From a phage: a stretch of DNA of 64,000 nucleotides. Where the stretch lies: the sequence record PZ179880.1; one strand, given 5' to 3'. Positions 11,233 through 16,484 of this stretch are shown one piece after another. Each line of letters starts with the position of its first letter. Position 1 is the first letter of the stretch. The notes beneath the pieces are model-generated. The model saw nothing but the letters and a program-made list of their open reading frames with translations. It searched no databases and was not told the origin of the DNA. A program made the translations under genes and the position numbers.

Positions 11233-12237
11233 TTAACTTACCAATTCAATCCAAGCCGGACGAAGTACATCTTGTACCATTTTAACTAATTCCTTCTTAA
11301 TCAAAGAAGGATTATCTGCTTGAGTTAGAGTAATACCTTCACGAGAAGTTTCTTCCAAAATATCTTGAACCGTTAGTCCCATCACCTTTCCAAAATCTTT
11401 TGGACCAATTTCGCCAATTTTAGAAATAACGTTATTTACTCGGTTCAGTGTAACGTAACAAGCTAAAATTCCAACCAATTTGTTATCAGCTTCTGACAGT
11501 TCAACTTTAGCTTTAATAGGCTTATCGGACTTTTTCTTTTCACTAAATTTAGAGTTCTTGCATTTGATGGCTACACGATTGCCGTTATGCAGCCAAGAAG
11601 GATAACAAGGTTTCAATACATATCCTTCAGCGGTAAATACTTCGCCTTTTGCTTCAGCATTCCAAACGCATTTATTTGCATCAACTAATCCAGCATGGTC
11701 TACTGTAAAATTATAATCTTGGACGACAGAATCTAAATCATTTGGCAATTTAATCAGCTCTTCAAATTTACCACGACCTAAAAGTGGAGCCATTTTAAAT
11801 TTAAATGTATTACAGAATGATTCCATCATATAATCATCGACATAAGTAACATCACCACTTTCTGTAGTAACAATAATGTCAAATACATAAAAATCTTTAT
11901 CACCATAATCGACATTCTTCTGAATGCCAGGTCCAGCGAATTCGCCAAAAACTTGATAAGATACAACTGCTGAAGTTTCCATAATATCTTGTACTGCTTT
12001 AATGGAATCAGCGTAATTCTTCAAAATAATTTCATACCCAAAGAAATCTTCGGCAGGAAGAATAGGACCAGTGCGTTTAGCACAAGTTACTTTATCACGC
12101 TCAATAATCAATGAGAAATTTGTGCCATGAATCTTTTCACGAGCTACCCATTCGCCGCCAGTCAATCCTAAACTGTAAAGTTTTTCAATGAATTTAGAAT
12201 TGTAATGATTTTCAAGACTGCTATACTTTTTAAACAT
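11233..12237 (-). CDS. rnlB: RNA ligase 2 (Rnl2)
   Basis: 334-aa ORF; nucleotidyltransferase lysine motif context EKIHGTN; matches recalled T4 Rnl2 (gene 24.1) sequence, length and position. Confidence 0.92.
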
Positions 12238-12246
12238 AATTAATCC

Positions 12247-12525
12247 TCAAAATGTAATTTCTAACCAATCACCATCACGCTGATCACTATTGACTTTAAA
12301 GCTAAATCCTTCTTTTCTCAGCCAATCACCGATTTCTTCAGTAATCAATTTATCGCGAGCAGTACAATAATAACTAAAATATGTTTTACCTTGTTCAGCT
12401 GCTTTATTAGCAAGTTCCGAAAAATCTTTAATAAAACACTCTAGCTTAAACTGTTTACTTTTAAGTGCTTTTTCGCGTAATCGATTAGCAAAAGATTCAT
12501 TTTCATAAAGATCATACTGTTCCAT
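12247..12525 (-). CDS. 24.2: Hypothetical protein (T4 24.2 position)
   Basis: 92-aa ORF co-oriented and tightly packed downstream of rnlB. Confidence 0.7.
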   Translation of the reverse strand: MEQYDLYENESFANRLREKALKSKQFKLECFIKDFSELANKAAEQGKTYFSYYCTARDKLITEEIGDWLRKEGFSFKVNSDQRDGDWLEITF

Positions 12526-12727
12526 TTTTCACCTTTTTATTAATATGTCTTTTTCTGTAAACAACTTTTTCTCGAGTTTCAAATTTATTCTTAGCAGTCA
12601 TAGCTCGAGCCCATAATACAGCCACTTCTTTCGCCTGTAAGTTTAATTCACGAGCAATTTCAATGAATGACTTTCCAGACTCATGAAGAGTAAACACCAC
12701 AACCTCAGTTCTCATAATCAATCTCAT
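12512..12727 (-). CDS. 24.3: Small protein with helix-turn-helix-like segment (T4 24.3 position)
   Basis: 71-aa ORF; segment GKSFIEIARELNLQAKEVAVLWARA resembles an HTH; start uncertain (internal Met possible). Confidence 0.6.
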   Translation of the reverse strand: MRLIMRTEVVVFTLHESGKSFIEIARELNLQAKEVAVLWARAMTAKNKFETREKVVYRKRHINKKVKNGTV

Positions 12728-12796
12728 GTTATCGAGTTGATGCCATTATATACATCATTTTCTGAGTGTGTTTTGTGTGCTTTCAAAATGAAGAAA

Positions 12797-12810
12797 GGGG
12801 CCGAAGCCCC
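12797..12810 (-). terminator. Terminator after hoc
   Basis: GGGGC-CGAA-GCCCC hairpin immediately downstream of the hoc stop. Confidence 0.7.
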
Positions 12811-12816
12811 TTATGA

Positions 12817-14232
12817 TTATGGATAGGTATAGATGATACCAGTTTCTAAAGCAGTTTTATGAATGATGTATCCATTACGTGATTCTTGAACATCGACTTC
12901 TGGATAGTCTTTCATCATCTTCTGAAGAGTGTAACGATGCAGGTAGTATTTACTATCTGGATCTTCAGTTTTCCAATCTTTACCTTCTTCGGTCATTTTT
13001 TGGATTTCATCCATAACCCACCAACCGCACCAGATATAAGCTGAAGTACGATGTGGAAGAGGATGAACATAAGGCAATTCACCTTCTGGTTCTGGAGCAA
13101 CTTTAGCCGTGACTGTTACATTACCAGTTTTGGTAACGGTTACAGGGTTATAATCTGCAGCAGATACAACAACAGAAACGCCAATCACTTGGGACCCTAT
13201 ATCAGACGTGTCAATCGCTAAAGTGCTAGTAGAACCTTCTACAGGAGAACCATCTTTGGTCCATGAATAAGCTACAGATGCTCCTGCCGGCGCTCCAGTA
13301 ACATCGGCTTTAAAAGATGCTTCTGCTCCTTTTTCAGTGGTAATTGAACTAGGCGTCAGAGTAACAGAAACGGCTCCCATAGTCTTTTTAGTAAAAACAA
13401 CCTCAATACCGTTAGTCGCAGTAGCTGGGTTATAATTTGATGCAGAAACCGTTACTTCACAATTCAATGTGTAATTAGCTTCTGCGGGTTCAGTTATGGT
13501 AATTGTTTTAGCAGTCTGACCTTCAATAACGGCAGTATCACGTTTCCAAACATAAGCGATACTTGCACCTTCTGGAGCACCAACAACGTTAGCTGTAACT
13601 ACCTGAGACTGCCCAATCTCTTTGGAAACAGAAGTCGGGCTCAAAGTAACCGAAACACCGCTCATGGTCTTTTTAATAAAAGCAACAGCAATGCCTTTAG
13701 TTGCAGTTCCATTATTATAGTCTGGAGCAGAAACCGTTACTTCACAATTCAATGTGTAGCTGGTTTCCGTCGATTCAGTCAAGGTAATTGTTTTACCAGT
13801 TTGACCGGAAATAACAGAAGAGCCACGTTTCCAAACATAAGCAATGCTTGCTCCTGACGGTGCGCCAGTAACATCAGCTGTGACTACCTGAGATTGACCA
13901 ACTTCCTTAGAAACAGAAGTCGGGCTCAAGGTTAAAGTAATTGCAGGCATAGTTTTGTTCTGAACGGTCAGAGTGGTTTCTGCCTCAGCAGTTTCTGCCG
14001 CACCCTCTGCTGGGGTAACAGTAGCAACTACTTTAACAGTCTTACTACCTGCAGGTCCTGCAGCAACATAATTCATAGCTGCGGTGACAGAAGATTGTTT
14101 TACGCCGTTTACTGTCCACACAAACGTTTCTGTGCCTTCAGCTGCGGCACCAGAAGTTGTTGCAGTAAAATTGGTTGTTGCTCCAATGACTGCCGAAGCG
14201 GCCAAAGGAGCAATAGATACGCTATAAGCCAT
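12817..14232 (-). CDS. hoc: Highly antigenic outer capsid protein Hoc, four Ig-like domains
   Basis: 471-aa ORF; C-terminal capsid-binding region matches recalled T4 Hoc; four ~95-aa Ig-like repeats where T4 Hoc (376 aa) has three. Confidence 0.9.
   Translation of the reverse strand: MAYSVSIAPLAASAVIGATTNFTATTSGAAAEGTETFVWTVNGVKQSSVTAAMNYVAAGPAGSKTVKVVATVTPAEGAAETAEAETTLTVQNKTMPAITLTLSPTSVSKEVGQSQVVTADVTGAPSGASIAYVWKRGSSVISGQTGKTITLTESTETSYTLNCEVTVSAPDYNNGTATKGIAVAFIKKTMSGVSVTLSPTSVSKEIGQSQVVTANVVGAPEGASIAYVWKRDTAVIEGQTAKTITITEPAEANYTLNCEVTVSASNYNPATATNGIEVVFTKKTMGAVSVTLTPSSITTEKGAEASFKADVTGAPAGASVAYSWTKDGSPVEGSTSTLAIDTSDIGSQVIGVSVVVSAADYNPVTVTKTGNVTVTAKVAPEPEGELPYVHPLPHRTSAYIWCGWWVMDEIQKMTEEGKDWKTEDPDSKYYLHRYTLQKMMKDYPEVDVQESRNGYIIHKTALETGIIYTYP
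13384..13953 (-). repeat. Tandem direct repeat (2 x ~285 bp) encoding near-identical Ig-like domains within hoc
   Basis: Protein segments aa 94-188 and 189-283 of Hoc are highly similar (SPTSVSKE[VI]GQSQVVTA...NCEVTVSA...KKTM); a third, more diverged copy lies at 13099..13383. Confidence 0.8.
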
Positions 14233-14241
14233 AGGTGTTCC

Positions 14242-14922
14242 TTATTTTAATGTTACGAAAGAAGAATTACGTGTTTCACGAATTAGAACTGATCCGTCGC
14301 GATTAATGTAATAAATTAAGCTAAATAAAGTTTGGTGCGCAGACGCATGTTCAAAACTAGTTGGGTGAGATTTCCAATCTGGAGTTTCAGCAATCCATTG
14401 GTAAATCCACCAAGGAACAGTGCAGAATCCTGGATTTTTTCCAATCAGCTGAAGATTTGGGCTAAAGTTTTCCGGAAGAGTAAATACAGGCGGCTTTTCA
14501 GATTCAATAATCTCAGCTACAGCCTGCTCGAATTTTTCTTCAACAAAAGGAGTATCTTCAATCAAAACATCGGTATTTTCAGGAATTTTATCCGTTTCTA
14601 CTACTTCAATTTTAATGTCAGATTTAACCGGAGAATCAATCAGAAGTGCTGCCTCTGGATTGACTTCTTCATCGTCATATTTTAACCCCTCTGCAGCATC
14701 AGCAGCATTGATTAAGTCTTTAATAGATAACCCATCAGTCTCTGGCATAGGTTCACTAGCGAGCTTCTGGAGGGCTTCTTCAATATCATTAACGATATTA
14801 TCAAAAGATTTATTCTTTTTGACCTTTATACCAAACTGTTCAGCATATTCAGCTAATTTAGCCTTAGCTTCTTTATTATCATCAAGAGCCTTCAGCTCTG
14901 CAATATAATCTTTATCTATCAT
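14242..14922 (-). CDS. inh: Inhibitor of prohead protease (Inh)
   Basis: 226-aa ORF at the T4 inh position between hoc and uvsW. Confidence 0.8.
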   Translation of the reverse strand: MIDKDYIAELKALDDNKEAKAKLAEYAEQFGIKVKKNKSFDNIVNDIEEALQKLASEPMPETDGLSIKDLINAADAAEGLKYDDEEVNPEAALLIDSPVKSDIKIEVVETDKIPENTDVLIEDTPFVEEKFEQAVAEIIESEKPPVFTLPENFSPNLQLIGKNPGFCTVPWWIYQWIAETPDWKSHPTSFEHASAHQTLFSLIYYINRDGSVLIRETRNSSFVTLK

Positions 14923-14935
14923 AATATTTCCTCAG

Positions 14936-14943
14936 TATAAATA
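14936..14943 (+). promoter_or_regulatory. T4-type late promoter for uvsW
   Basis: Exact TATAAATA ~30 nt upstream of the uvsW ATG. Confidence 0.65.
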
Positions 14944-14972
14944 TAGATATATTTATTACATGGTATTTAGAC

Positions 14973-16484
14973 ATGACTGACATTAAAGTACATTTTTATG
15001 ATTTTAGTCACGTGAGAATTGATTGTGAAGAAAGTACATTTCATGAACTCCGTGATTTCTTTAGCTTTGAAGCCGATGGGTATCGTTTTAATCCAAAGTA
15101 CAAATATGGTCACTGGGATGGACGAATCCGTCTTTTAGATTATAATCGTCTTCTTCCATTCGGCTTAGTCGGGCAAATTAAAAAGTTCTGCGATAACTTT
15201 GGCTATAAAGCCTGGATTGACCCACAGATTAACGAAAAAGAAGAATTATCAAGAAAAGATTTTGATGAATGGCTTTCTAAATTAGAAATCTATTCAGGAA
15301 ATAAAAGAATTGAACCGCATTGGTATCAAAAAGATGCAGTATTCGAAGGATTAGTTAATCGTCGTAGAATTCTTAATCTTCCAACATCCGCAGGTAAATC
15401 TTTAATTCAAGCTTTGCTTGCTCGGTATTATTTGGAAAATTATGAAGGTAAAATTCTTATCATTGTTCCAACAACTGCTCTGACAACTCAGATGGCTGAT
15501 GACTTTGTTGACTATCGTTTATTCAGTCATGCAATGATAAAGAAAATTGGCGGTGGAGCATCAAAAGATGATAAATATAAAAATGATGCACCAGTCGTTG
15601 TTGGTACATGGCAAACTGTAGTAAAACAACCAAAAGAATGGTTCTCACAGTTTGGAATGATGATGAATGATGAATGCCATCTTGCTACAGGAAAAAGTAT
15701 TTCATCTATCATATCAGGTTTAAATAACTGTATGTTTAAATTTGGTTTGTCTGGTTCATTGCGCGATGGCAAAGCTAATATAATGCAGTATGTTGGAATG
15801 TTTGGTGAAATATTTAAGCCAGTAACGACTTCTAAATTGATGGAAGATGGACAAGTAACTGAGCTAAAAATTAATAGTATTTTTCTTCGCTATCCCGATG
15901 AGTTCACTACTAAATTAAAGGGAAAAACTTACCAAGAAGAAATAAAAATTATTACTGGACTCAGTAAAAGAAATAAATGGATCGCTAAATTAGCTATTAA
16001 ACTTGCGCAAAAAGATGAAAACGCTTTTGTCATGTTTAAGCATGTATCACATGGTAAAGCTATTTTCGATTTAATTAAAAATGAATACGATAAAGTTTAT
16101 TACGTATCAGGGGAAGTTGATACTGAAACACGCAACGTAATGAAAACCTTAGCTGAAAACGGTAAAGGAATAATTATAGTAGCTAGTTATGGTGTATTTT
16201 CTACTGGTATTTCAGTTAAAAATCTGCATCACGTTGTTTTAGCGCACGGTGTTAAATCTAAAATTATTGTATTGCAAACAATAGGTCGCGTATTACGTAA
16301 GCATGGTTCTAAAACAATCGCAACGGTCTGGGACCTCATAGATGATTGTGGTGTTAAGCCAAAATCTGCTAATACGAAAAAGAAATACGTTCATTTGAAC
16401 TATCTTTTAAAACACGGCATTGATCGTATTCAGCGCTACGCAGATGAAAAATTTAATTACGTAATGAAAACAGTTAATTTATAA
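14973..16484 (+). CDS. uvsW: UvsW DNA/RNA helicase (SF2)
   Basis: 503-aa ORF; Walker A LPTSAGKS and DEAD-like MNDECH motifs; T4 UvsW length; late promoter upstream. Confidence 0.93.
   Translation: MTDIKVHFYDFSHVRIDCEESTFHELRDFFSFEADGYRFNPKYKYGHWDGRIRLLDYNRLLPFGLVGQIKKFCDNFGYKAWIDPQINEKEELSRKDFDEWLSKLEIYSGNKRIEPHWYQKDAVFEGLVNRRRILNLPTSAGKSLIQALLARYYLENYEGKILIIVPTTALTTQMADDFVDYRLFSHAMIKKIGGGASKDDKYKNDAPVVVGTWQTVVKQPKEWFSQFGMMMNDECHLATGKSISSIISGLNNCMFKFGLSGSLRDGKANIMQYVGMFGEIFKPVTTSKLMEDGQVTELKINSIFLRYPDEFTTKLKGKTYQEEIKIITGLSKRNKWIAKLAIKLAQKDENAFVMFKHVSHGKAIFDLIKNEYDKVYYVSGEVDTETRNVMKTLAENGKGIIIVASYGVFSTGISVKNLHHVVLAHGVKSKIIVLQTIGRVLRKHGSKTIATVWDLIDDCGVKPKSANTKKKYVHLNYLLKHGIDRIQRYADEKFNYVMKTVNL

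Follow-up and report, generated by a model that had tools for sequence, protein, structure and literature searches.

Hoc is the non-essential head-decoration fibre of Tequatrovirus; one molecule is present per major-capsid hexamer, and its Ig-like domains point outward. It is the main candidate for phage mucus adherence and a widely used display platform. In T4 and some of its relatives, Hoc binds the centre of the gp23* hexamer and adheres to mucin glycans (PMC10385173, PMC11853027, PMC13435897). Differences in module number between phages are already known: PNJ-9 has a two-Ig Hoc (PMC11853027), Serratia phage Muldoon a ten-Ig Hoc (PMC10385173), and Klebsiella phage PMBT63 a four-Ig Hoc, published as an example with mucin retention and one Ig-like domain more than T4 (PMC13435897). 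A literature search on unequal recombination in hoc yielded nothing relevant, and in PMC10580926 duplication is mentioned only for gp23/gp24.

The hoc locus and its expression signals

The window (the whole 64,000-nucleotide stretch of phage DNA that was analysed) carries hoc in the same neighbourhood as T4, between inh and gp24.3. The gene inh (14242..14922) lies upstream, homologues of gp24.3, gp24.2, and rnlB (RNA ligase 2) lie downstream, and uvsW is located beyond inh on the opposite strand. The naming of the 471-aa product as Hoc in the original prediction was confirmed by these T4 gene neighbours and by a phmmer search against solved structures, in which T4 Hoc (5vf3_Z) was matched with an E-value of 4.7e-137. 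The gene and its putative signals are as follows.

12817..14232, minus strand: hoc coding sequence, 471 aa, stop codon at 12817-12819 (from the ORF list)
14239..14243, minus strand: Shine-Dalgarno-like AAGGA, 6 nt upstream of the hoc ATG and overlapping the inh stop codon (from the sequence)
12785..12810, minus strand: intrinsic-terminator-like hairpin GGGGC-TTCG-GCCCC followed by a T-rich run, just past the hoc stop (from the sequence)

In phage OE5505, a terminator is annotated at the place equivalent to this hairpin. No T4 late promoter TATAAATA was detected on the minus strand upstream of hoc or inh; the match nearest to these two genes (14936-14943) is on the plus strand and faces uvsW. 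The degenerate TATATTTATA was the sole late-promoter-like match upstream of inh. Antisense ORFs of 51-56 aa within hoc were treated as chance ORFs.

Some further features of the surroundings were recorded. The late-promoter core TATAAATA occurs 18 times in the whole window vs. 8.7 expected, an excess consistent with a late-gene-rich T4-type region. The homing-endonuclease gene segE lies between inh and uvsW in T4 (L007, 3558-4175) and is missing from the corresponding place in the window (14923-14972). The window also lacks both the NUMOD3 endonuclease ORF beside uvsW and the GIY-YIG ORF between genes 24 and 23 that are present on L018, one of the two T4-like contigs considered below. The gp24.3 homologue (12512-12727) is 71 aa long in the window, compared to 67 aa in several relatives and 56 aa in T4, so this small ORF differs among phages in its start or its length.

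Module composition and predicted fold

For comparison, the hoc genes of GenBank phages were split into modules, which fell into five types: A, B1, B2, C1, and C2. Hoc of the window consists of four Ig-like modules of ~95 aa and a T4-type capsid-binding domain.

13954..14232, minus strand: Ig-like module A (D1), aa 1-93, Klebsiella-phage (Jiaodavirus) type, beta strands at 4-91 in the AlphaFold2 model
13669..13953, minus strand: Ig-like module B1 (D2), aa 94-188, first copy of the 285-nt tandem repeat
13384..13668, minus strand: Ig-like module B2 (D3), aa 189-283, second copy of the 285-nt tandem repeat
13099..13383, minus strand: Ig-like module C (D4), aa 284-378, apparent chimera with C1 as the first 120 nt and C2 as the rest, pLDDT of blocks 88-94
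12820..13098, minus strand: capsid-binding domain of T4 type, aa 379-471, near-identical to T4 Hoc residues 284-376 (phmmer)

Thus, the capsid-binding C-terminus, the string of Ig-like modules, and the position from inh to gp24.3, which are traits of the Hoc family, are all present. Pfam matches were weak: I-set, at 25.2 bits, passed its gathering threshold of 23.7 bits, Ig_3 and Ig_2 stayed below theirs, and Big_2 was also among the weak matches. Therefore, the fold was examined by structure prediction. AlphaFold2, run with a 24-sequence alignment, predicted four all-beta sandwich modules with a pLDDT of 84-97 for 10-residue blocks over residues 1-370; the mean for the whole protein was 85.7, the C-terminal domain being of lower confidence. 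Foldseek matched the capsid-binding domain to 8t1x_X (98% identity, TM 0.79), and the other matches of the protein were multi-Ig ectodomains and the RB49 Hoc 3shs. The prediction of Ig-like domains therefore held in the structural model, as did the claims of one Ig-like module more than in T4 Hoc (376 aa, three Ig) and of a third, diverged copy in addition to an N-terminal Ig-like domain: D4 shares 32-34% protein identity with D2 or D3.

A Klebsiella-type array on a T4-type anchor

Many Tequatrovirus genomes from E. coli and Shigella phages aligned to the 8 kb around hoc with 95-98% identity, and the alignments skipped most of hoc. Identity to ECP2301 was ~98% throughout except at window positions ~13090-14232, where it was ~50%. 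When hoc was compared with T4 in 30-nt bins, identity rose from 0.53 to 0.77 and 1.00 across CDS positions 1027-1087; it stayed at ~100% beyond CDS position ~1087 (window ~13146), which leaves about 20 codons of D4 on the T4-like side. The transition is located as follows.

13146..13176 (approximate), minus strand: switch from the Klebsiella-phage-type array to T4-type sequence, from the last ~20 codons of module C onward

Modules D1-D3 matched 177 GenBank phage records, all of them from Klebsiella, Enterobacter, Raoultella, Salmonella, and Erwinia phages (best identity 93.5%); none of these 177 records was from an Escherichia or Shigella phage. Module A alone has ~97% DNA identity to Klebsiella phage Kpn6N, with a dS of 0.10 to Kpn6N and 1.40 to T4. 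Since D1-D3 resemble Klebsiella-group phages and an identity of ~98% to E. coli Tequatrovirus holds for the flanks as well as for the capsid-binding domain, the gene reads as a Klebsiella-phage-type Ig array grafted onto a T4-type anchor in a Tequatrovirus backbone.

Five-Ig relatives and probable fusion of C1 with C2

The best protein matches in a collection of 5.8 billion proteins were P0001 (ENA ERZ27275855 k141_8374) and P0002 (Logan ERR10901377), both of 565 aa and 97% identical over the best local alignment. Their architecture is A-B1-B2-C1-C2 plus the T4-type anchor, and their genes are located on the T4-like contigs L017 (47,871 nt) and L018 (166,189 nt). Compared to each of the two, the window gene has 6 substitutions in 1416 nt (99.6% identity) and one clean 282-nt in-frame gap. 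Painting of its DNA on the five-Ig gene assigned CDS positions 1-969 to reference positions 1-969 and CDS positions 970-1416 to reference positions 1252-1698. Correspondingly, the diagnostic residues of module C change type only once: the first 13 are of C1 type and the next 12 of C2 type.

13250..13263, minus strand: fusion junction, the 14-nt block TGGACCAAAGATGG common to C1 and C2, inside which the 282-nt deletion falls

The block TGGACCAAAGATGG is the longest in-register run of C1/C2 identity in the five-Ig allele; otherwise, C1 and C2 are 73% identical. The distal part of C1 and the proximal part of C2, which the window lacks, have counterparts in KP185, Marfa, SG1, and P0004; therefore, these halves are older than the hybrid. 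P0004 (18 member sequences) also demonstrates that a five-Ig Hoc exists on a Klebsiella-phage backbone. A near-identical longer allele, one diagnostic switch, a preserved reading frame, and a junction inside the longest shared block were thus found together, which makes a contraction from five to four modules the parsimonious reading. The latest structural change in hoc was most likely the loss of a domain, the direction of which we infer by parsimony.

The fusion allele is a singleton in the collections searched. The exact Hoc protein of the window is not on record in the exact-protein look-up, a 47-nt junction probe had 0 exact matches in the viral, genome, and metagenome contig collections, and no GenBank phage matched the gene at full length above ~86% DNA identity. 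The uniqueness of the junction would also agree with an artefact of the assembly or the stock, the true phage having five modules and the 282-nt gap being a repeat collapse or a deletion in part of the stock. The nearest relatives indeed have five modules and, apart from the gap, 99.6% identity to the window gene, and tandem repeats are a classic cause of collapse. We nevertheless hold an artefact to be improbable, because the 14-nt block is shorter than assembler k-mers and too short for a collapse between copies of 73% identity, and because the fused gene keeps its reading frame and its product is predicted to fold. Analogous in-register variants in independent records, including the GenBank isolate SG1, argue in the same direction.

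A megablast with 140 nt around the junction matched KP179 alone (95.6%). This phage was considered as an independent copy of the window junction and rejected, since it represents a parallel switch and not the same allele. Module 3 of the KP179 hoc (L005), its only C module, is a C2-C1-C2 patchwork on a Klebsiella backbone. Its C1-to-C2 switch is located in the same YSWTKDGSPV block as in the window, with 95.6% identity over 137 nt across the junction. The coincidence of the two switches suggests that this block is a recurrent crossover hot spot.

The surroundings of hoc are also closer to L017 than the rest of the backbone: window positions ~12000-15700, including hoc, are 99-100% identical to L017, and the wider flanks are ~97.6% identical. 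Given the 99.6% identity of hoc itself, this difference suggests that a segment of a few kb with this hoc allele was recently exchanged between Tequatrovirus backbones.

Putative in-register deletions in sibling alleles

Five other hoc genes, one from a GenBank isolate (SG1) and four from assembly contigs, were painted on the five-Ig gene in the same way.

SG1 (GenBank phage): A-[B1/B2]-C1-C2, junction block of 20 nt
P0006 (contig): A-[B1/B2]-C1-C2, junction block of 17 nt; separate 3-nt deletion in C2
P0009 (contig): A-[B1/B2]-C1-C2 with a different breakpoint, junction block of 5 nt
P0008 (contig): A-B1-C1-C2, junction block of 5 nt
P0086 (contig): three modules after two deletions, junction blocks of 6 nt and 12 nt

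All five look like distinct in-register deletions of one five-Ig allele. Deletions aside, P0006 differed from L017 by one mismatch in hoc and by none in the 300 nt on each side; on this near-identity, the two represent nearly clonal phages of different module number. The statement in the original prediction that the repeat should be recombinogenic holds in part: module number does vary among close relatives, apparently by recombination between modules, but the long near-identical substrate supposed for it does not exist, and the process acts instead on diverged repeats that share short identical stretches.

The opposite direction, in which the four-module type of the window would be older and the five-module allele would have been built by unequal recombination, e.g., between A-B1-B2-C and A-B1-C1-C2, draws on the co-circulation of both four-module classes (Kpn6N type and KP185/P0008 type) on the same backbones and on the established fact that T4-like phages recombine freely in mixed infection. 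It is very unlikely in our judgement: module C of the window is a one-switch C1/C2 hybrid and so requires descent from tandem C1 and C2, each of the six shorter variants can be derived from the five-module allele by one or two in-register deletions, with junctions that are all different, and an expansion needs more steps. Contraction of a five-Ig allele thus remains the preferred reading of the series.

Reality and age of the B1/B2 repeat

Self-comparison of the gene recovered the in-frame 285-nt tandem repeat. Tandem Repeats Finder reported a period of 285 and 2.0 copies at 13356-13929, with 78% matches, no indels, and a score of 707; a separate repeat search found two 285-nt copies with 76% identity. 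When the protein was shifted against itself by 95 residues, the best 90-aa segment had 68 identical residues; a shift of 190 residues gave 32 of 90. The modules are detectably similar, with blastn E-values between B1 and B2 of about 1e-47 to 1e-50, far past chance. B1 and B2 share 72% protein and 76% DNA identity, i.e., they differ at 24% of DNA positions; at synonymous sites the difference amounts to 47% (dS 0.74), and dN/dS is 0.25. Of the claim that the two modules are highly similar, the module boundaries proved exact and in codon phase (13384..13668 and 13669..13953), but "highly" overstates a similarity in which the longest exact in-register run is 32 nt. The alignment is best read as that of two paralogues from a tandem duplication, both copies of which, according to dN/dS, are under purifying selection.

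For each copy, the counterpart in other phage genera is more similar than the copy beside it. B1 of the window has 93-94% DNA identity to B1 (module 2) of the Jiaodavirus phages Kpn6N, ValerieMcCarty04 (VMC04), KpV477, and KP185. B2 has 85-86% DNA identity to B2 (module 3) of Kpn6N, ValerieMcCarty04, and PhiKpNIH-6 (Marfavirus), and 94% to module 2 of SG1. The dS values of the window B1 and B2 to their orthologues were 0.28 and 0.51 for Jiaodavirus and 0.55 and 0.44 for Marfavirus, all lower than the value of 0.74 between the paralogues. Because orthologue dS (0.28-0.55) is below paralogue dS and orthologues are closer than the neighbouring copy, the divergence data place the B duplication before the spread of the allele class over Jiaodavirus, Marfavirus, and Tequatrovirus. 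The B1-B2 pair is also found in Kpn6N, ValerieMcCarty04, PhiKpNIH-6, P0004, and P0001-3.

A recent in-situ tandem duplication in the phage lineage, which would have added a fourth Ig domain to a T4-like three-domain Hoc and would suit both the two adjacent in-frame copies without indels and the single B-type module of T4 itself, is highly improbable in view of this divergence, the closer orthologues, the sharing of the pair with the phages just named, and an array that has ~50% DNA identity to the T4-type array and is not derived from it. The word "recent" in the original prediction thus did not stand for B1/B2; the recent event that can be detected is the 282-nt deletion that fused C1 and C2, inside the module described there as a third diverged copy. 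For annotation, this means that a Hoc with more domains than that of T4 need not have gained one recently.

The 32-nt perfect in-register run lies at window positions 13441-13472 and 13726-13757 (CDS positions 476-507 in B1 and 761-792 in B2), in the YTLNCEVTVSA region, and includes synonymous sites. The chance of such a run is ~0.01 at 76% identity, and in L017 it is broken by one mismatch. It may represent a gene-conversion patch or nucleotide-level constraint.

Proposed history and its consequences

Taken together, a history in which a Klebsiella-type cassette sits on a T4 anchor, B1 and B2 are old paralogues, and a C1/C2 segment was recently lost from a five-Ig allele appears to us quite probable. 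A 285-nt tandem duplication would have given rise to B1 and B2 before the allele class spread across the three genera, and a Klebsiella-type Ig cassette, which in the window has the order A-B1-B2-C, would have been grafted onto the T4-type capsid-binding domain. Most recently, an ancestor with A-B1-B2-C1-C2 would have lost 282 nt in register at the 14-nt C1/C2 block, by unequal homologous recombination or by replication slippage. A block of 14 nt is short for classical homologous recombination, and slippage or illegitimate recombination is equally possible. According to the structural model, the outcome would be a full-length, foldable C1/C2 hybrid domain in a four-module fibre. Acting at other identity blocks, the same process could have produced the other four- and three-module variants of close relatives. 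In-register recombination of this kind would keep module length and topology, so that hybrids fold and surface residues are reshuffled.

By analogy with T4, the C-terminal domain would anchor one Hoc at each gp23* hexamer centre (PMC10385173, PMC11853027, PMC9271167). The four Ig modules would form a roughly linear fibre, one module longer than the 180-angstrom fibre of T4 and one module shorter than that of the five-module relatives. As in T4, the Ig modules may bind mucus or cell-surface glycans weakly and multivalently.

The hoc of the window is a new allele and a real but ordinary feature, and its contraction, together with the sibling deletions, is modest micro-evolution. The locus adds a sequence-level series consisting of one five-module allele and at least six in-register derivatives, that of the window included, and this allele series illustrates a route of module-number change and the hybrid domains that result. 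Whether the hoc Ig array is generally a fast length-variable locus, in which in-register recombination or slippage at short blocks shared by diverged modules of 282-285 nt repeatedly yields three-, four-, and five-module fibres, each with a hybrid domain, in almost clonal phages, is a tentative idea to which we give slightly less than an even chance. If it is true, phage populations hold standing variation in fibre length and glycan-binding surface, and selection in mucus or other environments could sort Hoc variants, the window gene being one fresh product. If the process runs within stocks, therapeutic or display phage preparations could be heterogeneous in Hoc length.

Module number and comparison with known Hoc systems

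A four-Ig Hoc is not unusual. Many T4-like phages of Klebsiella, Salmonella, and E. coli have a Hoc of 467-474 aa. Within Tequatrovirus, the T4-type array comprises 3 modules in T4, 4 in wV7 and ECP2301, 5 in UGKSEcP2 (570 aa), and 6 in Sfk20 (664 aa). When the capsid-binding domain alone was used as a query against 1.84 billion representative proteins, 136 clusters were obtained, and the length ahead of the anchor across them corresponds to roughly 1 to 15 modules. Counting of three- vs. four-Ig records by tblastn coverage was dropped, since joined pieces of three-Ig genes also cover the query.

Two irregularities were observed among the hoc genes compared. In the GenBank records of Klebsiella phage F48 (L014, 301-1436), OE5505 (L008, 2825-3961), and KNP5 (L025, 2818-4889), hoc is annotated as two fragments or in part. 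The gene is non-essential and rich in repeats, and these cases may be frameshifts, pseudogenes, or errors of sequencing. The 439-aa Hoc of Escherichia phage vB_EcoM_005 (L016) has four Ig modules, and its capsid-binding domain is shortened at its beginning by ~33 residues (IWCGWWVMDEIQ... region), which raises the question of whether it can still bind the capsid.

T4 Hoc (5vf3 chain Z, 8t1x) shares with the window protein the inh-gp24.3 locus and the arrangement of N-terminal Ig-like modules on a capsid anchor, but has three Ig domains in 376 aa compared to four in 471 aa, and its array belongs to another allele class (~50% DNA identity). The other Tequatrovirus phages with more than three modules, wV7 (474 aa), ECP2301 (472 aa), UGKSEcP2, and Sfk20, have the same genus-level backbone and tandem repeats of domain 2 that result in 4-6 Ig domains; however, these are independent duplications in the T4-type array, the DNA of which is unrelated to that of the window array. 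In the wV7 record, Hoc is called similar to the RB32 "large head outer capsid protein".

The Klebsiella phages Kpn6N and ValerieMcCarty04 (Jiaodavirus) and PhiKpNIH-6 (Marfavirus) have the same A-B1-B2-C order, a Hoc of 469-472 aa, and 84-89% protein identity; they differ by a Klebsiella-type capsid-binding domain and by a last module that is pure C2 and not a hybrid. The 468-aa Hoc of PMBT63 likewise has an extra Ig-like domain compared to T4 and is 79% identical to the window protein, but its architecture is A-B1-C1-C2 (KP185/PMBT63 class), with C duplicated rather than B. Closest of all are the five-Ig Hoc proteins P0001/P0002 from uncultured or contaminant T4-like contigs, which have the same T4-type anchor and the same A-B1-B2 modules with 99.6% identity over 1416 positions; in them, C1 and C2 are separate (565 aa), whereas the window has a single hybrid and 282 nt fewer.
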